Source: an uncultured archaeon
GTDB taxonomy: Archaea; Iainarchaeota; Iainarchaeia; Iainarchaeales; DATDZZ01
Direction: 5' to 3'
Length of the DNA: 8,042 bases
Assembly: GCA_964373795.1 (NCBI GenBank)
Contig: CAYJVY010000012.1
Location: 27,728-35,769, forward strand
The position numbers and the translations under genes were made by a program. Under the pieces are notes generated by a model, which saw only the letters and a program-made list of their open reading frames with translations, ran no database searches and was not told the origin of the DNA. Position 1 is the stretch's first letter. Every line of letters begins with the position of its first letter. This document shows, piece after piece, positions 68 through 7,878 of the stretch.

Positions 68-3000
68 TTGGAATTAAATTTAAATTCAATTGAGAGAGAG
101 GAAAAAGAAAATCCTTTCATTTCAAAGTTTGAACAGTTTTTTCATTTACGTTATAAAAAAGAAATTGAAAAACTTGCTTCGACTTATCCTGAAAAAAAAT
201 CTTTAAATATTGATTTCAATGAATTGGAAAGGTTTGATTTTGAATTAGCTGAGGAATTAATTTCAAATCCAGATTATTTAATTGATGCAGCGAAAGAAGC
301 AGTTAAATCAATTGATATTCCAAACCTTGGATTAGAGATAGAGTTTACTCCAAATATTCGTTTTTATAATTTGCCCAAAGACAGGGAAGTATTGCTTAGA
401 AATATTGGTTCAGAGCATTTAGGAAAACTAATTTCAGTTGAAGGAGTTATAAGGCAAATAACTGATGTATTGCCAAAATTGAAATTAGCTGTATGGGAGT
501 GCACTAAATGTGGCAACACTTATAAAATAAGTCAAGAAGGCCAGTCAATTAAAAAGCCTTCAATTTGTGAATGTAAAAACAAGGAATTTGATTTACTTGA
601 AGATAAATCTTTTTTTATTGATTATCAAAAAATTCAAATTCAAGAACCATTAGAAAAACTTAGAGGCCATGAACAACCAACTACTTTAAACATTTATGTT
701 TCAGATGACTTAGTAAACAAGGTTTCAGCTGGAGACAAAACAAGATTTGTAGGAGTTATTCGTTTACTTGTTCCAAGAGAAAGAAAAGTTGTTTATGGAA
801 GATTTTTAGAAGCAATTCATTTAGATGAAACTGAAAAAGAATTCAGTGAAGTAGAGGTTTCAAAAGAAGAAGAAGAACAAATAAAAGAATTATCTAAAAA
901 TCCTCAAATATATGACATTTTAGTTCAATCCATTGCTCCAAACATTTACGGACATGAAATAGTGAAAGAAGCAATTGCATTACAATTATTTGGAGGAGTA
1001 AAAAAATTACTTCCAAATAATACATCCATTAGAGGAAATATTCACTTACTAATTGTAGGAGATCCTGGAATGGCTAAATGCGTTAGTGGAGACACAAGAA
1101 TTTTATTAGAAGATGGAACTCAAACACGAATTGATCAATTTGTTGAAGAAAATTTACAAAAAAACCAGCAATTTAATTTAGAAGACGGAGTATACAGCAA
1201 CATCAACCAATTCATTCCAACAATAAATTTGGATGGAAAAATAAGTGAACAAAAAGCTTTAAGAGTTTATAAAAGAAAAGCTCCAAAAATGTATGAAATA
1301 AAAACAAGCACTGGAAAAAAAATAAAAGGAACGTACACTCATCCATTGTTTAGTTGTGAAAACGGAAAAGTTAAAGCTGTAAAAATAAGCAATTTAAAAA
1401 AAGGAGATTTTATAGCTATTCCAAGAAATATTAAAATAAATCCGGCAGAAATTTTGTTAAACAATGAAATAATTAAAGGAAAAACAAATGCTGCTCAGAT
1501 TAACTTGCCTTTAAAAGTATCAAAAGAACTCGCCAGGATATTAGCATATATTGCATCAGAAAGCCATATTTTTGATAAAACTAACAGCAAGTATGTTTCA
1601 TTCACCAATGTAGACAAAGAATTACTTGAAGACTTTTTTACTTGTGTTAAAAAAATATTTAACTTAAATCCAAAAATAAAAAAAAGAGAAAAAATAACTA
1701 CAATAAAGTTACACAGCACTGAATTGCATAATTTTTTAAAGCTAAATGCAAAAGAAGTGCTTGGAAAATCTAGAGATAAAAAAATTCCGGCAATAATAAT
1801 GAATTCAAATGATAACGTTGTAAAGGAATTTTTAAAAGCATTTATTAATGCAGAAGGATCAATAAGAAAAGATGAAAGAGGAATTGCAATAGTTTCTGCA
1901 AGCGAAGAACTATTAGAACAACTTCAAACACTATTGTTGAGATTTGGAATTGTAAGTTCAAAAAAAGCCATATGGAATGTAGCTACAAATACTATCAAAA
2001 AAGAAAAAAGAAAATATTATAGAATAAGATTTGCTGGACAATTTGCAATTGATTTCATAAACAAAATTGGATTTATAACTAAAAGAAAACAAGAAAAAGC
2101 AAAAAAAATAATTTTATCAAACAAAAAAACTAATTCAAACATTGATGTGATTCCAAATCTGAACGCATTATTAAAAGAAATTAGAATTAATTTAGGAATA
2201 AGCCAATTTAAAACAGGAATTGCTAGAACTTCTTTTCAACACTATGAAAGAGGAGATAGACTTCCAAGTAAAAAACAGTTAGGAAAAATTGTTTCAACTT
2301 TTTTAAAAGAATATGAACAAAAAAATTTATTTGACAAAAATCTTGAAAAAAAATTGCTGGATTTATTTAAGCTTTGGAAATCAGATATTTTTTGGGATAA
2401 AATAGAAGAAGTAAAAGAAATACCTTCAGATGAATGGGTTTACGATATAGAAGTAGAAAATAGCCATATTTTTATAACAAATAACATGTTTTCACATAAT
2501 TCCGCGCTTCTACAAGCAACAAATGAAATTGCTCCAAAATCAATTTATGTTGCAGGAAAAACTTCCTCCGGAGTTGGATTATGCGTAGCACCTGATTCAT
2601 TAATACTCAATGATAATGGTTTCAAAGAAATTAAAGAATTTGTTGAAGAAAACTTTGATAAAACAAAATCAAAAGAAGAAATATCGAATGCTTTTTCAAA
2701 TGATTTCTGTGGAAAGGCTCCAACACTTGAAAACAATTTAAAAGTAACAAATTCAGAAATATACAAAATTTGGAAAATAAAAGCTCCGGAAAGAATGATT
2801 AAGATAAGAACAATGTCTGGAAAAGAACTTGATTTAACTCCAAATACTTCTCTTGTTAGGATAAAAAATGATTCAATTGAGTGGATTAAGGCTTCAGAAA
2901 TTACAGAAAATGATTTTATTGCTTCATCTAGAATCTTGCCTGAAGGTGAAGTAAAAAACTATCCAACAATTAAAGTGTTATATGGAAATAAAAATATTAG

Positions 3001-6000
3001 AATAAGAGACAATGTTTTTACAATCTTTAAAGAAATAACTGACAAACTATTAAAAAAATATAAGTCAGTTAAAGAAATAGCAAAAAAACTTGGTATATCC
3101 AGAGAAAGAATTTATCTTTGGCGAACAAAAAACTATTCAAGTGGCATTCCTTTACATGCCTTTGTTTCACTTGGCTTGGAAGCAGGATACTCATTTGAAG
3201 AATTATCAAACCATGTTACAAAAATATTTTTGAGTTATGGAAAAAATGTAAAAATCCCTAGATATATTGATGATGAAGAAATAGCTTATCTTGCAGGATT
3301 GGTTTTAGGAGATGGAAGTATCTATCTTACAAAACGTTCTGCATCAATAAGGGTTTTCAACCAATCAGAAGAAATTTTGAAAAAAGTTGACAGCATAGTT
3401 GAAAAAACAATTGGAGCAAAAACAGAAAAAATAAGTGATGGAGTAAGAGTTCCAAATAGAAGAATTGCTTCAATACCTTTATACACAATATTAAACGCTT
3501 ATGGAATAGTTAAAGAAAAAAACAAAATCAGGATTTCATGTATTGCATCAGAGTTTTCAAACAAAGTTGTTTCAAAAATATTGCAAGGATTATTTGATAC
3601 TGATGGCTATACTGCTAAAACAAAAAAAGGTTCTCCACACATTGGTTTGAGAACAATAAGTAAAGATTTAGCAAAAACTGTGCTACTTTGCCTGCTAAAA
3701 TTTGGAATACATACAAAACTTAGGCTAAGAAAAGTAGCAGGAAGAATATCTATAGGAAAAAAAATAACTGTAAAAAGCAACAACAATCAATGGATTGTAG
3801 AGATTAGAGGAAAAGAAAACCTTGAAAAATTTGAAGAAAAAATAGGTTTCAACCTTCAAAGAAAAAGTAATTCATTAAGAGAAATAATTTCAGCCATATC
3901 GAAATCCAATACTAATATTGATGTTGTGCCACAAATAAAAGAAACATTAAAAGAACTATCAAAAACAGGTTATGCTATAAATTCTACAAAAAATATTTCA
4001 AGAAATAAATTGATTGAATTAGTAAAAAAACAAAAAACAAAAAATAATTTCTTAAAAAATTTATCTGATTCAGATATTTTTTGGGAAAAAGTTACAGAAA
4101 AGACAGAATTCAAACCAGAATATGATTTTGTATACGATTTCTCTGTCAAAGAAAGCCACAACTTTATTGCAAACGGAATATTTGTTCATAACACGGCTTC
4201 AGCAGTTAAAGATGATTTTGGTGAAGGAGGTTGGACTTTAAAAGCAGGAGCACTTGTTTTAGCTTCTGGAGGACTAGCCTTAGTTGATGAATTTGATAAA
4301 ATGGAGTGCTTGACTAGCGATGCATTAATTACTTTAGAAGATGGAACATTAAAACCATTAAAGGAATTATTTATAGAATCTACTTTAGAAAATGAAGTTG
4401 AAAATACAGTTAAAGGAAAAAGTGTGAAATCTTTAGAGAATTTCAGAGTTTTAAGCATGGATGAAAATGGAAAAATTATTGGAAAAAAATTGTTAAAAGT
4501 TCATGAATTTCCTTATTCAGGTAAATTGCTTAAAATAACTCTTGAAAGTGGTGAAACGCTAAAGGTTACTCCAAATCATCCGTTTTTTTGCTTGAATGAA
4601 AAAAGTGAAATTAAAACAATTAAAGCTGGTTTTTTAAGGAAAGGAATTTTCTTAACCTTGCCCAGAATAATTAATACTTTTTCTAGTCAAAAAATAAGTA
4701 ATGAATTAGCTAGAGTTTATGGTTATCTTGCTGGAGACGGAAATGTTTCTTGGAATCCAAATGAAAATTATTTTATTCGTTTTACAAATAAAGAAACAGA
4801 TTTAATAGAAGATTTCAATGAATGCATTCACAAAATAGGGTTTGAATCAAAGTTTTTTCCAAGTGATTCTAAAGAAAATGGAGTCATAACGCAGAGAGTT
4901 AATGGAAAAAAACTTGTTGAAGAAATTCAATTTAATGCACCTGGATTAATTGAAAAATATAGTAACAAGTATTCTCCAACAGATTTAGTGACTTCACCAA
5001 GCACTTCAAGCAATTATCTTAAAGGGTTATTTGATTCAGAAGGATTTGTAGATATAAAAAACAAGCAAATAAGTTTTTCTTCCACCAGCGAAAGATTAAC
5101 AATTGAAGTAAAGTCATTGCTTCTAAGATTTGGCATTCTAAGTCAAATTAGAGTTAGAAAAGCTGAACAAAATAGAAAAAAAAGCTTTATACTTAGAATA
5201 ACTAACCAAGATTCTATTCAAAAATTTTCTACTTTTATTTCTTTTACTCATAACAGGAAAAGAAAAAAATTGGAAGAAATATTGCAAAAAGAAAAATGTA
5301 ATAGAACTATAATAAATGTCATTCCAAATATTGGGGATTTATTAAAAGAAATTAGAATCAATTTAAAACTAAAACAAAGCGAGTGCGGACTAATTAAATC
5401 AACTTACAATAATTTTGAAAACAATGTTGCAAACATTTCAATTGAAAAAGCTGCACTAGTTCTTGAAAAATTTAAAGAAGCATCTTTAAAGCATGAAAAT
5501 GAATTAGTTAAAGAAAAAATAAAAACACTTGAAACATTAATTGATTCAGATCTTGTGTGGAGAAAAGTAAAAAAAATAGAAATAACAGAAACTAGTGAAG
5601 CAAAAGAATTGAATCATAAAATGATTAACGAACTAAATAAAGTTTTAGACATGTTAAGAGTAAATGAAAAAATAACTAAAAAAACTAGTTTTCAAGAATT
5701 GAAAAACATAGTCCAAAAAATTGAAAGAAAAATAAGTGAAATTGAAAAATGTAAAGAAAATAGTTTTGAAACATTAACTCCTTTATTAAATGAAATAAAG
5801 TTATTCAATATTAGTGAACAAGAAATAGCTTTAAAGCTTGAAGTAAATCAATCCACAATTCACAGATGGCTGAATAAAGAAGTAAAAACAGAAAAGTTAG
5901 AAGAAAAAATATCTGATGCATTCTATAAGATTTTGAATTCAATTGATTTAAATAAAGTAAATAAAGTTATTAAAAAAACAAAACTATATTTAGAGAAAGA

Positions 6001-6976
6001 AATAAAGATTTACGATCTAACTGTTGAAGATTCTCATAACTTTATTGCAAATAATATAATTGTTCACAACTCAGAAGACAGAAGTGCAATGCATGAAGCA
6101 ATGGAGCAAGGAAGGGTTTCAGTTGCAAAAGCAGGAATTGTTACTTCATTTAAAACTGATACAAGTGTTTTGGCTGCTGCCAATCCAAAATATTCTCGTT
6201 TCGATCCATACCAATCTTTTTTAGAACAAATTGATTTACCTTCAACTCTTATTTCCAGGTTTGACTTGTTCTTTCCAATTAAAGACGTACTAGATAGAGC
6301 TAAAGATAAAGAAATTGCTTCACACATTCTTGAAACCCATAAAACAGGTGAAATGTTAATTCAATCAAAGCTTAAAGGAAAAAATTTAAGTGAAGAACAA
6401 TCAAAGGAATTGAAAAAAATTATTCCAATAATTGACAACGAGTTATTAAAAAAATTCATTTCATTTGCAAGACAAAATGTTTTTCCTATACTGGAAAAAG
6501 AATCAATTCAAATGATTAGTGAATTCTATATTGATTTAAGAGATCAGGGAAGAAAAGAAGGAGCTTATTCTGCTACTCACAGACAATTAGAAGGACTTGT
6601 AAGATTAAGTGAGGCTTCAGCTAGAGTAAGACTTTCAGACAAAGTTGAATTAGAAGACGTTAAAAGAGCAATTAAATTAGTAAAATATTCATTAGAAGAA
6701 CTTGTAACTGATCCTGAAACAGGAAAAATTGACATTGATATTTTAACTGCAGGAATAACTCATACTCAAATAAGTAATCTTAAATCGGTTTTAAAAATAG
6801 TTAAAGACTTAGCTGAAACACAGGAAATGGTTTCAATTCAAGAAATAATTGACCAAGCAAAATCTGAAGGAATTGGAGAAGAAGAAAAAATTCGTGAATA
6901 TATTTCTACTTTGAAAAAGAAAGGGGAGTTATACGAGCCTCGTCATAACTTCTTAAAACCAACTAGCAAAAAATAA
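68..6976 (+). CDS. mcm: MCM (minichromosome maintenance) replicative helicase precursor, archaeal type, with three in-frame inteins; predicted mature protein 703 aa
   Basis: Single 2302-codon ORF. Extein segments are nt 68-1078 (aa 1-337), 2501-2581 (27 aa), 4193-4306 (38 aa) and 6071-6973 (301 aa). Joined, they give canonical MCM motifs. N-terminal domain has a CxxC...CxC zinc motif (CTKCGN...SICEC). Walker A is IVGDPGMAK|S and Walker B is LALVDEFDKME|SEDRSAMHEAMEQGRVSVAKAGI. Sensor 1 is VLAAANP, the arginine-finger region is LISRFDLFF, and sensor 2 is ATHRQLEGLVRLSEASARVRL. The C-terminal tail looks like a winged helix. Start is TTG at 68: it is the first ATG/GTG/TTG after the in-frame TGA at 20-22, and no in-frame ATG follows for 334 codons. 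Stop is TAA at 6974-6976. Confidence 0.93.
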   Translation: MELNLNSIEREEKENPFISKFEQFFHLRYKKEIEKLASTYPEKKSLNIDFNELERFDFELAEELISNPDYLIDAAKEAVKSIDIPNLGLEIEFTPNIRFYNLPKDREVLLRNIGSEHLGKLISVEGVIRQITDVLPKLKLAVWECTKCGNTYKISQEGQSIKKPSICECKNKEFDLLEDKSFFIDYQKIQIQEPLEKLRGHEQPTTLNIYVSDDLVNKVSAGDKTRFVGVIRLLVPRERKVVYGRFLEAIHLDETEKEFSEVEVSKEEEEQIKELSKNPQIYDILVQSIAPNIYGHEIVKEAIALQLFGGVKKLLPNNTSIRGNIHLLIVGDPGMAKCVSGDTRILLEDGTQTRIDQFVEENLQKNQQFNLEDGVYSNINQFIPTINLDGKISEQKALRVYKRKAPKMYEIKTSTGKKIKGTYTHPLFSCENGKVKAVKISNLKKGDFIAIPRNIKINPAEILLNNEIIKGKTNAAQINLPLKVSKELARILAYIASESHIFDKTNSKYVSFTNVDKELLEDFFTCVKKIFNLNPKIKKREKITTIKLHSTELHNFLKLNAKEVLGKSRDKKIPAIIMNSNDNVVKEFLKAFINAEGSIRKDERGIAIVSASEELLEQLQTLLLRFGIVSSKKAIWNVATNTIKKEKRKYYRIRFAGQFAIDFINKIGFITKRKQEKAKKIILSNKKTNSNIDVIPNLNALLKEIRINLGISQFKTGIARTSFQHYERGDRLPSKKQLGKIVSTFLKEYEQKNLFDKNLEKKLLDLFKLWKSDIFWDKIEEVKEIPSDEWVYDIEVENSHIFITNNMFSHNSALLQATNEIAPKSIYVAGKTSSGVGLCVAPDSLILNDNGFKEIKEFVEENFDKTKSKEEISNAFSNDFCGKAPTLENNLKVTNSEIYKIWKIKAPERMIKIRTMSGKELDLTPNTSLVRIKNDSIEWIKASEITENDFIASSRILPEGEVKNYPTIKVLYGNKNIRIRDNVFTIFKEITDKLLKKYKSVKEIAKKLGISRERIYLWRTKNYSSGIPLHAFVSLGLEAGYSFEELSNHVTKIFLSYGKNVKIPRYIDDEEIAYLAGLVLGDGSIYLTKRSASIRVFNQSEEILKKVDSIVEKTIGAKTEKISDGVRVPNRRIASIPLYTILNAYGIVKEKNKIRISCIASEFSNKVVSKILQGLFDTDGYTAKTKKGSPHIGLRTISKDLAKTVLLCLLKFGIHTKLRLRKVAGRISIGKKITVKSNNNQWIVEIRGKENLEKFEEKIGFNLQRKSNSLREIISAISKSNTNIDVVPQIKETLKELSKTGYAINSTKNISRNKLIELVKKQKTKNNFLKNLSDSDIFWEKVTEKTEFKPEYDFVYDFSVKESHNFIANGIFVHNTASAVKDDFGEGGWTLKAGALVLASGGLALVDEFDKMECLTSDALITLEDGTLKPLKELFIESTLENEVENTVKGKSVKSLENFRVLSMDENGKIIGKKLLKVHEFPYSGKLLKITLESGETLKVTPNHPFFCLNEKSEIKTIKAGFLRKGIFLTLPRIINTFSSQKISNELARVYGYLAGDGNVSWNPNENYFIRFTNKETDLIEDFNECIHKIGFESKFFPSDSKENGVITQRVNGKKLVEEIQFNAPGLIEKYSNKYSPTDLVTSPSTSSNYLKGLFDSEGFVDIKNKQISFSSTSERLTIEVKSLLLRFGILSQIRVRKAEQNRKKSFILRITNQDSIQKFSTFISFTHNRKRKKLEEILQKEKCNRTIINVIPNIGDLLKEIRINLKLKQSECGLIKSTYNNFENNVANISIEKAALVLEKFKEASLKHENELVKEKIKTLETLIDSDLVWRKVKKIEITETSEAKELNHKMINELNKVLDMLRVNEKITKKTSFQELKNIVQKIERKISEIEKCKENSFETLTPLLNEIKLFNISEQEIALKLEVNQSTIHRWLNKEVKTEKLEEKISDAFYKILNSIDLNKVNKVIKKTKLYLEKEIKIYDLTVEDSHNFIANNIIVHNSEDRSAMHEAMEQGRVSVAKAGIVTSFKTDTSVLAAANPKYSRFDPYQSFLEQIDLPSTLISRFDLFFPIKDVLDRAKDKEIASHILETHKTGEMLIQSKLKGKNLSEEQSKELKKIIPIIDNELLKKFISFARQNVFPILEKESIQMISEFYIDLRDQGRKEGAYSATHRQLEGLVRLSEASARVRLSDKVELEDVKRAIKLVKYSLEELVTDPETGKIDIDILTAGITHTQISNLKSVLKIVKDLAETQEMVSIQEIIDQAKSEGIGEEEKIREYISTLKKKGELYEPRHNFLKPTSKK
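500..574 (+). other. Zinc-binding motif of the MCM N-terminal domain
   Basis: Cys codons at 500-502, 509-511, 566-568 and 572-574 give C-x2-C-x18-C-x-C. This position matches the zinc motif of archaeal MCM N-terminal domains. Confidence 0.75.
1529..2100 (+). other. LAGLIDADG homing endonuclease domain of intein 1 (domain ends approximate)
   Basis: Two dodecapeptide motifs: LARILAYIASES (1529-1564) and FLKAFINAEGSI (1829-1864), each with an acidic residue at the catalytic position (Glu). The LLLRFGI motif typical of intein endonucleases follows motif 2. Confidence 0.8.
2168..2302 (+). other. XRE/Cro-C1-like helix-turn-helix module in intein 1, between endonuclease and block F
   Basis: LLKEIRINLGISQFKTGIARTSFQHYERGDRLPSKKQLGKIVSTF matches the XRE HTH pattern: hydrophobic-x-x-x-R, then G-x-S-Q, then a recognition helix, then x-E-R-G-x-R-x-P-S and a trailing helix. 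Confidence 0.6.
3065..3133 (+). other. Small helix-turn-helix in intein 2, between the N-terminal splicing region and the endonuclease
   Basis: SVKEIAKKLGISRERIYLWRTKN fits the common x-x-EIAxKLGxSxxTIxxW three-helix DNA-binding pattern seen in transposase, terminase and resolvase type HTHs. Confidence 0.55.
3281..3890 (+). other. LAGLIDADG homing endonuclease domain of intein 2 (domain ends approximate)
   Basis: Motifs IAYLAGLVLGDGSIY (3281-3325) and ILQGLFDTDGYT (3578-3613), both with the canonical catalytic Asp, followed by LLCLLKFGI. Confidence 0.85.
4706..5290 (+). other. LAGLIDADG homing endonuclease domain of intein 3 (domain ends approximate)
   Basis: Motifs LARVYGYLAGDGNVS (4706-4750) and YLKGLFDSEGFV (5015-5050), with Asp and Glu at the catalytic positions, followed by LLLRFGI. 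Confidence 0.85.
5339..5473 (+). other. XRE-like helix-turn-helix module in intein 3 (more degenerate), same relative position as in intein 1
   Basis: LLKEIRINLKLKQSECGLIKSTYNNFENNVANISIEKAALVLEKF. It shares the identical nonapeptide LLKEIRINL and the upstream VIPN with intein 1, and keeps the F-E-N...I-S-x-E-K-x-x-x-x-L layout. Confidence 0.5.
5810..5881 (+). other. Small helix-turn-helix inside the C-terminal insertion of intein 3
   Basis: ISEQEIALKLEVNQSTIHRWLNKE has the same EIAxKLxxxxSTIxRW pattern as the intein 2 HTH at 3065-3133. Confidence 0.55.
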
Positions 6977-7014: not shown

Positions 7015-7878
7015 TCAGAAAACAGCAATCAAAAGCACTCCAATAAACATTATTGCTGCACCAATTAATCTGTCCTTAATGTTTTTTTCTTTAAAAAAAA
7101 GCCAGCCAAAAAAAGTGCTAATTAAAGCACTTGTACGCTTGATTGCAATTACATAAACAACTAATGCCATACTCATTGCAATCATTTGAAATACAACTAA
7201 AAAAGACATTGCCAACCCACTAAAAATAATTGGTTTAAAATTTTCTTTAATTTGTGTAACAATGTTTTTTGACTTGAAAAGCATTACTGGAAAAAGCGCA
7301 AGTGTTAGGAAAAGACTTGTAATAATGCCCCAAAAAATTGGAGAAGAGTTTTGAATTCCGATTTTGTCATAAGCAGAACTAATTCCCCAAATAAATGCAA
7401 CAAGCAACATTAGCTTTACCCCTTTATTTTCAACTAATGCTTTTAATGGATTGAGCAAGCCAAGCTTGCCTTGCTTTATATTCAGAATATATGAACCAAT
7501 GACAACAAATATTACTCCAAGTAAACCAAAAAAACTTGGAATTTCATGCGCAATTAAAGGAGTTGTAAAAAGCAGAAAAACTGGAGTAAAATTAAGCATT
7601 GGAATTGCCAAAGACAAGTCAGAAACCTCTAATGCTTTAATGTAAAGAACTGTTGTCAAAGCATTTGTCAAGCCAACTACTACCAAAGCAAACCAAAAAT
7701 CTTTTCCAAATTCAGGAATTGAAGTAAACACAAGCCATGGAAGCAAAAACACAAGGCAAGCAAACCTGAAAGCAAATGCAATTACATATGCATCTGCTTT
7801 CCTAGTTGCTTGTTTTCTAAAAACATCTGCAAAAGAATTAGACAATGCACATAAAAATGAAAAAAAAATCCAAAGCAT
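7015..7878 (-). CDS. EamA-like transporter, drug/metabolite transporter (DMT) superfamily, about 10 predicted TM segments
   Basis: 287-aa ORF that is almost entirely hydrophobic helices separated by short polar or charged loops. It has a two-halves architecture. The C-terminal ...FFKEKNIKDRLIGAAIMFIGVLLIAVF is typical of EamA repeat ends. ATG at 7876-7878 (complement) and TGA at 7015-7017 (complement). Substrate cannot be inferred. Confidence 0.75.
   Translation of the reverse strand: MLWIFFSFLCALSNSFADVFRKQATRKADAYVIAFAFRFACLVFLLPWLVFTSIPEFGKDFWFALVVVGLTNALTTVLYIKALEVSDLSLAIPMLNFTPVFLLFTTPLIAHEIPSFFGLLGVIFVVIGSYILNIKQGKLGLLNPLKALVENKGVKLMLLVAFIWGISSAYDKIGIQNSSPIFWGIITSLFLTLALFPVMLFKSKNIVTQIKENFKPIIFSGLAMSFLVVFQMIAMSMALVVYVIAIKRTSALISTFFGWLFFKEKNIKDRLIGAAIMFIGVLLIAVF

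Follow-up and report, generated by a model that had tools for sequence, protein, structure and literature searches.

An mcm gene interrupted by three inteins

We analysed an 8,042-nt stretch of DNA from an uncultured archaeon (contig CAYJVY010000012.1, positions 27,728 to 35,769; hereafter the window), in which an initial annotation had proposed a gene for the helicase MCM that carries three inteins. The gene, mcm, encodes the precursor of the MCM replicative helicase of an AT-rich DPANN archaeon related to Iainarchaeota/Diapherotrites, and it is interrupted by three inteins, all in frame with the mcm open reading frame (ORF). The parts of the gene, all on the forward strand, are listed below in positions of the window, with lengths in amino acids (aa) and slashes marking splice junctions.

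68 to 6976: mcm precursor ORF, 2302 codons and a stop codon; TTG start, with GGGGAG ahead of it
68 to 1078: N-extein, 337 aa, comprising the MCM N-terminal domain, the OB fold with its zinc motif and the start of the AAA+ domain as far as Walker A GDPGMAK (Pfam MCM_N, MCM_OB and MCM; alignment to 8x7t_D)
1079 to 2500: intein 1, site MCM-a, 474 aa, GMAK/CVSGDT...MFSHN/SALL (Cys1, His-Asn, +1 Ser)
2501 to 2581: internal extein 2, 27 aa, SALLQATNEIAPKSIYVAGKTSSGVGL (junctions and MCM alignment)
2582 to 4192: intein 2, site MCM-b, 537 aa, GVGL/CVAPDS...IFVHN/TASA (Cys1, -1 Leu, His-Asn, +1 Thr)
4193 to 4306: internal extein 3, 38 aa, holding Walker B DEFD at nt 4286-4297 (junctions and MCM alignment)
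4307 to 6070: intein 3, site MCM-d, 588 aa, DKME/CLTSDA...IIVHN/SEDR (Cys1, His-Asn, +1 Ser)
6071 to 6976: C-extein, 301 aa and stop, comprising the rest of the AAA+ core (SEDRSAMHEAMEQ..., arginine finger SRFD), the lid and the winged helix (Pfam; MCM alignment)

Excising nt 1079-2500, 2582-4192 and 4307-6070 in silico leaves a 703-aa MCM (2302-1599), the sum of the four exteins, and the inteins make up 1599 aa, or 69.5 %, of the precursor. The spliced product is colinear with the MCM structure 8x7t_D across all three junctions without a gap (E 2.2e-160; residues 36-697), and its alignment with 8q67_A is likewise gap-free there (E 2e-151). Splicing in silico restores the motifs GDPGMAKS, DEFDKMESEDRSAMHEAMEQ and SRFD. 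The exteins contain MCM_N, MCM_OB, MCM (P-loop) and MCM_lid, all above the Pfam cut-offs, so that the protein has the N-terminal domain, OB fold with zinc motif, Walker A and B motifs, arginine finger and lid of an archaeal MCM replicative helicase. Junction checks and arithmetic thus reproduced exactly the ORF length, insert boundaries and 703-residue helicase that the initial annotation had given.

The assigned start agrees with the alignments of homologues to the precursor, which begin at residue 1 or 2, and a protein identical to the precursor is present in a public collection (P0001). An independent Logan assembly of ERR3478686 matches all 8042 nt save for one single-nucleotide difference, G2165A, which changes Ala700 to Thr within intein 1. 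At the composition of the window (28 % GC), 1599 intein codons would be free of stop codons by chance with a probability of ~1e-67, and the whole 6.9-kb ORF would be uninterrupted with a probability of ~1e-97.

Because all three inteins interrupt the ATPase core, a functional ATPase requires all three splicing events. The earlier statement that helicase activity depends on three separate splicing reactions is therefore a sound inference from the anatomy of the gene.

Splicing and endonuclease motifs

Each insert matches the Pfam family Intein_splicing (E 1e-24 to 1e-28; bit scores of 86-98, where the cut-off is 35.8) and contains two stretches matching LAGLIDADG_3; in inteins 1 and 2 the Intein_splicing match stops precisely at the proposed C-terminus. 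As had been proposed, all three are class 1 inteins: they begin with Cys1, end in His-Asn and are followed at +1 by a nucleophile, namely Ser, Thr and Ser, respectively. Their motifs, on the forward strand, are as follows.

1328-1351: intein 1, block B GTYTHPLF
1529-1567 and 1820-1861: intein 1, LAGLIDADG motifs (Glu161 and Glu259)
2438-2500: intein 1, block F/G, ending in His-Asn
2831-2857: intein 2, block B variant LTPNTSLV, with Thr replacing His
3281-3319 and 3569-3610: intein 2, LAGLIDADG motifs (Asp244 and Asp341)
4130-4192: intein 2, block F/G
4562-4588: intein 3, block B VTPNHPFF
4706-4744 and 5006-5047: intein 3, LAGLIDADG motifs (Asp144 and Glu245)
6008-6070: intein 3, block F/G

The window has the catalytic residues expected of each intein, namely Cys1, the block-B Thr/His, the acidic LAGLIDADG residues and the terminal His-Asn, and the family of inteins at each site conserves them. 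Both LAGLIDADG motifs of each intein end in an acidic residue that is conserved within its site family, and from these residues the endonucleases of all three inteins look active.

The block-B motif Thr-x-x-His is complete in intein 1 (TYTH) and intein 3 (TPNH), and intein 2 has TPNT. We considered whether intein 2 might be degenerate on this account and rejected the idea. Among 133 inteins extracted from relatives there are 48 distinct sequences from the site of intein 2, of which 44 have Thr in place of the block-B His and only one has His, and the Thr always occurs together with a Leu at -1. The orthologues of Tko CDC21-1 form a small group that naturally lacks the block-B His, has -1 Leu, and still splices by a compensatory mechanism (PMC6333167). 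Since the substitution is the norm in its site family and matches the Tko CDC21-1 group, the loss of His in intein 2 is a documented exception and not decay.

This variant motif bears on the possibility that the gene is a decaying or non-functional copy whose inteins no longer splice, with a second mcm doing the work. The window covers 8 kb and the rest of the genome lies outside it, where such a copy could reside, and intein 2 lacks a residue usually found in block B. However, that lack is normal for its family, the MCM motifs and intein catalytic residues are all intact, the reading frame runs uninterrupted at a GC content that makes this extremely improbable by chance, and the exteins are as conserved as those of intein-free relatives. 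We regard decay of the gene as highly improbable.

Insertion sites and spacing of the inteins

The placement of the inserts in Walker A, at GL/TA and after Walker B was correctly recognized from the start, and corresponds to three of the catalogued MCM intein sites a-e (PMC4760082). Intein 1 lies directly after the Walker A Lys (K/S), which is MCM-a. Intein 2 lies at GL/TA, 27 residues past MCM-a, which is MCM-b. Intein 3 lies just after Walker B at DKMx/S (here DKME/S), and its position and +1 Ser identify MCM-d, for which junctions of R/S or D/S with +1 Ser have been described (PMC10643990). The insertion positions, 337, 364 and 402, compare with 335, 362 and 401 in the Haloferax volcanii numbering, in which the fourth catalogued position is 415 (PMC3972481). 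The best matches of intein 1 among sequences in the PDB are the VMA inteins 7qss/7qsu (E 7e-24), followed by the Pho/Pab CDC21-1 inteins 6rpq (E 2e-21) and 6rpp (E 9e-18). A best match of VMA type fits the equivalence of the MCM-a position to VMA-b of the archaeal ATP synthase (PMC10643990).

The close packing of the inteins raises the possibility that their splicing is ordered or mutually dependent, or that adjacent inteins splice together and skip the internal extein between them (alternative protein splicing). The internal exteins are very short (27 and 38 residues), and intein 1 is 27 % identical to intein 3 across about 450 residues; the identity of intein 2 to either of the others is about 26 % and confined to the endonuclease region. 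A study of Haloquadratum walsbyi inteins, the title of which reports 'conditional alternative protein splicing' (cited in PMC10643990), may also bear on MCM. However, short exteins are by themselves no sign of interdependence, each intein has a full set of junction residues, and extein skipping would remove conserved ATPase core (with extein 3, Walker B too) and leave a dead helicase. Moreover, an identical spacing of 27 residues separates CDC21-1 from CDC21-2 in Pyrococcus abyssi MCM (PMC6801210). The initial annotation had suggested interdependence on the ground that internal exteins of this size cannot fold by themselves; no feature of the sequence supports it. We consider ordered or alternative splicing an unlikely feature of this precursor.

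Site occupancy among related mcm genes

The nearest relatives of the exteins (58-72 % identity) come from metagenome-assembled genomes labelled Candidatus Iainarchaeum, Diapherotrites or 'archaeon', and belong to the DPANN (Nanobdellati) archaea. An aligner tolerant of long gaps was used to place 42 database proteins, together with 31 intein-bearing ORFs taken from 80 genome loci, on the spliced MCM. Six sites are occupied in this set, with 0 to 4 inteins per mcm:

Site a': junction GDPG/C...HN/TGKS; occupied in relatives
Site a: junction after the Walker A Lys; occupied in the window and in relatives
Site b: junction GL/TA; occupied in the window and in relatives
Site e: junction .../C...HN/CIDE, just before Walker B; occupied in relatives
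Site d: junction DKMx/S; occupied in the window and in relatives
Site c: junction EQQ/S...HN/T; occupied in relatives, empty in the window

The states of occupancy include none (about 20 close relatives, with 58-66 % extein identity to the window), b only (the commonest), d only, a+b, a'+b, a'+d, b+d and a+b+d. The a+b+d trio of the window recurs in one relative (P0002/L004, 2314 aa). Three inteins in other combinations are found in P0023, P0024 and L046, and mini-intein versions of three-intein combinations in P0038 and P0039. One relative has four inteins (a, b, e and c), which account for 2168 of its 2842 aa (76 %; P0014). The initial annotation had noted that archaeal MCM/CDC21 genes with several inteins were already known, and up to four have indeed been reported (PMC3972481, PMC10710043). 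Its description of the window as an extreme case is overstated, given these published four-intein MCMs, the higher intein share of P0014 and the recurrence of the same trio.

The inteins group by site, and not by host gene. The closest relative of intein 1 among a-site inteins is P0021 (48 % identity), that of intein 2 among b-site inteins is L005/P0016 (63 %) and that of intein 3 among d-site inteins is L004 (44 %); a word-indexed search for homologues in which intein 3 was the only query gave a single weak match. That the nearest relative differs from one intein to the next fits separate histories of the three.

The d site shows a distinctive pattern at the +1 residue. In the genome loci the d site is occupied in three cases (the window, L001 and L004), each reading FDKME/SEDRS, whereas at the empty d sites of relatives the +1 residue is mostly Pro, Ala, Lys, Glu or Thr. 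An empty d site with +1 Ser occurs in just two of the Iainarchaeota-like relatives (extein identity about 58-72 %), L031 (JAWANB010000007.1) and L032, and these sites are identical to the spliced d junction of the window at 29/30 and 26/30 nt, respectively. Similarly, the empty b site of L018 is identical to the spliced b junction of the window at 28/30 nt. Each of these three empty sites is either a target still susceptible to homing or the outcome of a precise loss of the intein. In haloarchaeal MCM-d the same dichotomy of Ser in occupied and Pro in empty alleles has been described, and Pro has been proposed to make alleles refractory (PMC10643990).

The alignment also revealed site a', which lies three residues upstream of MCM-a (GDPG/C...SHN/T(G/A)KS), holds inteins of 368-380 aa, and is outside the sites a-e described in PMC4760082. 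Inteins at a' occur in P0007-P0013, P0015, P0016, P0030 and P0036 and in L005, L006, L037 and L045, and never together with an a-site intein within the relatives sampled. The window could not host an a' intein because the would-be +1 residue is Met (GDPGMAKS).

In two of the relatives, a gene for topoisomerase VI subunit B lies ~4 kb downstream of mcm (L015 13091-16345 and L034 18445-21798) and has a LAGLIDADG intein in the part encoding its ATPase domain.

Origin of the inteins

The sporadic distribution of the inteins, their intact endonuclease residues and the Ser-versus-Pro pattern at the +1 position of the d site together argue for selfish homing elements. We think it very probable, from these features of the sequences, that this is the best way to understand the three inteins, as homing elements residing at the known sites a, b and d. 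According to this interpretation, each intein would excise after translation through an N-S acyl shift at Cys1, transesterification to the +1 Ser or Thr and cyclization of the terminal Asn, and only the triply spliced 703-aa product would have an intact region from Walker A to Walker B. The endonuclease would cut an intein-free allele at the matching site, and recombination would then copy the intein into it; the near-identical empty target sites of relatives give homing indirect support. The three inteins would have arrived at their sites separately, each belonging to a site-specific family with gains and losses across related genomes.

The base composition at third codon positions (GC3) is 0.154 in the inteins and 0.152 in the exteins, and this equality points to inteins that are long-resident or have been exchanged among similar genomes, with no sign that they arrived very recently. 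At the DNA level we found no recent gene conversion among the three inteins, the only similar stretch being that coding for block F/G (62-73 % over 60 nt), which is motif conservation and not recent exchange. A search for a viral or phage vector identified no close carrier: archaeal-virus MCMs are intein-free and 30-34 % identical, and the phage intein matches to the window inteins are about 25 % identical.

Homing into a completely empty allele is poor when two neighbouring endonucleases are active (PMC10643990), so that alleles with several inteins should be assembled step by step. All of the intermediate occupancy states required for this occur among the relatives.

Several considerations weigh against a selfish origin or limit how much it explains. 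The identities of the inteins to their nearest relatives, about 40-63 %, are no evidence for recent transfer. A selfish origin may be compatible with a secondary regulatory effect, and the genome may have a second, intein-free mcm outside the 8-kb window. Splicing and DNA cleavage are here deduced from conserved residues, and the structural model of intein 3 described below is of moderate confidence (mean pLDDT 68, pTM 0.45).

The principal functional alternative is that the inteins have been co-opted as a post-translational switch, in which splicing that depends on redox state, temperature, ions or contact with the host gates the supply of helicase and hence replication. The unspliced protein would be inactive with all three inteins in the ATPase core, all splicing residues are intact, and conditional splicing has been documented for inteins of other replication and repair proteins, such as RadA and DnaB (PMC4513877, PMC6195587, PMC11409957). 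However, the inteins are sporadic among close relatives, many of which have intein-free alleles, and the endonuclease catalytic residues have been kept, as expected of mobile and not of domesticated elements. A Cys1-Cys+1 disulfide trap is impossible with Ser, Thr and Ser at +1, and although inteins 1 and 3 have a Cys after block B, their families do not conserve it. Thus the window has no junctional redox Cys pair, its inteins have no conserved extra Cys, and there is no clade-wide fixation among the relatives. The authors of work on haloarchaeal MCM-a and MCM-d share this reservation, given frequent loss and gain (PMC10643990).

The initial annotation had put the precursor forward as a candidate for conditional control of replication. 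No sequence feature supports this proposal, and the relatives carry 0, 1, 2 or 3 of these inteins; such patchy occupancy among close relatives indicates gain and loss of selfish elements and not a fixed regulator. We therefore consider co-option as a switch improbable and retain selfish homing as the explanation of the three inteins.

Accessory domains and an extra module in MCM-d inteins

All three inteins have accessory domains in addition to the splicing and endonuclease domains. These features, on the forward strand, are as follows.

2168 to 2293: intein 1, accessory helix-turn-helix (HTH_3) between the endonuclease and the Hint domain's C-terminal part (Pfam E 1.6e-5; scanned by itself it exceeds the gathering score)
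3065 to 3133: intein 2, helix-turn-helix accessory domain resembling NUMOD1/HTH_23, located after the Hint N-part and ahead of the first LAGLIDADG helix (NUMOD1 E 1.2e-5, which exceeds the gathering score)
5339 to 5464: intein 3, first of two accessory modules, a helix-turn-helix (HTH_3) that follows the endonuclease (Pfam)
5552-5584: intein 3, Hint strand LVWRKVKKIEI, ahead of the second module (pattern D..WRKV..I)
5591 to 6004: intein 3, second accessory module, 138 aa, all-helical (sequence comparison and AlphaFold model)
5810-5881: intein 3, helix-turn-helix core of the second module (motif NQST..RW)

The accessory modules to which the initial annotation had drawn attention are thus real. 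Such domains, some of them helix-turn-helix, have already been described, in much the same position, for the endonuclease-bearing inteins TliVMA, PI-PfuI and PI-TkoII (PMC8966425).

The second module of intein 3 lies in a hairpin of the Hint domain, between the strand with the pattern D..WRKV..I and block F. A helical module of 137-138 aa with a helix-turn-helix core is conserved in 7/7 MCM-d inteins found (six distinct sequences). The distance from the strand to block F is 146-147 residues in the d clade, as against 9-17 in 70 other inteins sampled, and the stretch is contiguous, with the module position empty, in the solved inteins aligned, including 6rpq, 6rpp, 4o1r, 1mi8, 2lqm, 7qss and 2cw7. 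When a profile of the module was compared with 1.84 billion representative proteins, the full-length matches fell in two clusters, both of MCM precursors, and the remaining matches cover only the generic helix-turn-helix core.

An AlphaFold model of intein 3, built from a 5-sequence alignment, places the helices of the module at residues 437-562 of the intein, with a local pLDDT of about 77-89. The best structural matches of the model are TliVMA 7qss, PI-PfuI 1dq3, 7qsu and PI-PkoII 2cw7, and it also matches I-DmoI and PI-PfuI, in keeping with a double-motif LAGLIDADG homing endonuclease. We considered 'domain IV' of PI-TkoII as a counterpart of the module and found this unlikely, in that residues 492-529 of 2cw7 align contiguously across that hairpin. 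Sequence comparison and the model together suggest that the MCM-d module probably marks a new position for an intein accessory domain.

The modules also enter a broader proposal, namely that the three inteins, lying so close together, lock replication of a DPANN symbiont in several steps, with splicing that is conditional or order-dependent and, as the title of the H. walsbyi study suggests, possibly extein-skipping, and that the unusual second helix-turn-helix module of the MCM-d intein couples DNA binding to splicing or extends recognition of the homing site. We would give this combined scheme little credence. The MCM-d module is a modest new detail, and the rest of the window represents a known phenomenon. 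Full-length inteins with helix-turn-helix domains, especially those of the MCM-d clade, could serve meganuclease or intein engineering.

Neighbouring sequence

An ORF for an EamA-family transporter of 287 aa (7015-7878, reverse strand; Pfam E 1e-28) is convergent with mcm, and the stop codons of the two genes are 38 nt apart. On a longer Logan contig the EamA gene is followed by genes for an SPP-peptidase-family protein (PF06550) and a VTT-domain protein, and a protein near-identical to the precursor (P0050) is encoded on a 9.7-kb Logan contig with the same neighbours. The 75 nt upstream of window position 1 on Logan contig ERR3478686_613564 (L081 1-75) are GC-rich in contrast to the AT-rich remainder, and are possibly a contig-end artefact. 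Two antisense ORFs on the reverse strand, 4186-4458 (90 aa) and 6064-6327 (87 aa), overlap intein-extein junctions and are most likely chance ORFs. Scans of the window for tRNAs and Rfam RNAs found none.

Comparison with known intein systems

A close parallel is with the inteins MCM-a, -b, -c and -d (InBase nomenclature) of haloarchaeal MCM (CDC21), which occupy the same three insertion points in the same host protein (PMC10643990, PMC3972481, PMC4071816). They also have LAGLIDADG endonucleases, occur several to a gene (up to four), are gained and lost sporadically, and show the Ser/Pro dichotomy at site d. The window differs in that its host is a DPANN archaeon (Iainarchaeota-like) with about 28 % GC, site c is empty, and the MCM-d inteins here bear the extra 138-aa helical module with its helix-turn-helix. 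The CDC21-1 and CDC21-2 inteins of Pyrococcus and Thermococcus (6rpp, 6rpq; PMC6801210) likewise pair a P-loop intein with another one 27 residues downstream, and intein 2 has the -1 Leu and the missing block-B His in common with the Tko CDC21-1 group (PMC6333167). However, the examples from Pyrococcus abyssi and P. horikoshii are mini-inteins without endonucleases, whereas the window has three full-length inteins with accessory domains.

The architecture of Hint, LAGLIDADG and accessory domains is that of TliVMA/PhoVMA (7qss, 7qst), PI-PfuI (1dq3), PI-PkoII/TkoII (2cw7) and PI-SceI (PMC8966425), and a helix-turn-helix between the endonuclease and the Hint C-part has been described for known inteins with accessory domains (PMC8966425). 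Intein 2 differs from these in having an extra helix-turn-helix before the endonuclease, and intein 3 differs from the solved inteins aligned, 7qss and 2cw7 included, in having the second module between the 'W-strand' and block F.

In number of inteins the window, with three, is below the published records of four in the archaeal MCMs WP_083500658.1, WP_048152640 and WP_014557079.1 and of five in Anaeramoeba Prp8 (PMC10710043), which likewise have several inteins crowded into a single conserved ATPase or essential protein. The window is thus a well-preserved and rich but ordinary example of a known phenomenon and no record, and it leaves the understanding of inteins and of replication control unchanged. 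A survey of archaeal multi-intein genes covered only two DPANN genomes, with no multi-intein gene in them (PMC10643990, Table 1). Iainarchaeota-like genomes carry the mcm intein sites of haloarchaea and Thermococcales, together with a further P-loop site, and they too show the Ser/Pro immunity pattern at the +1 position of site d. The group therefore lends itself to comparative studies of how inteins are gained and lost and of how neighbouring inteins interfere with one another.

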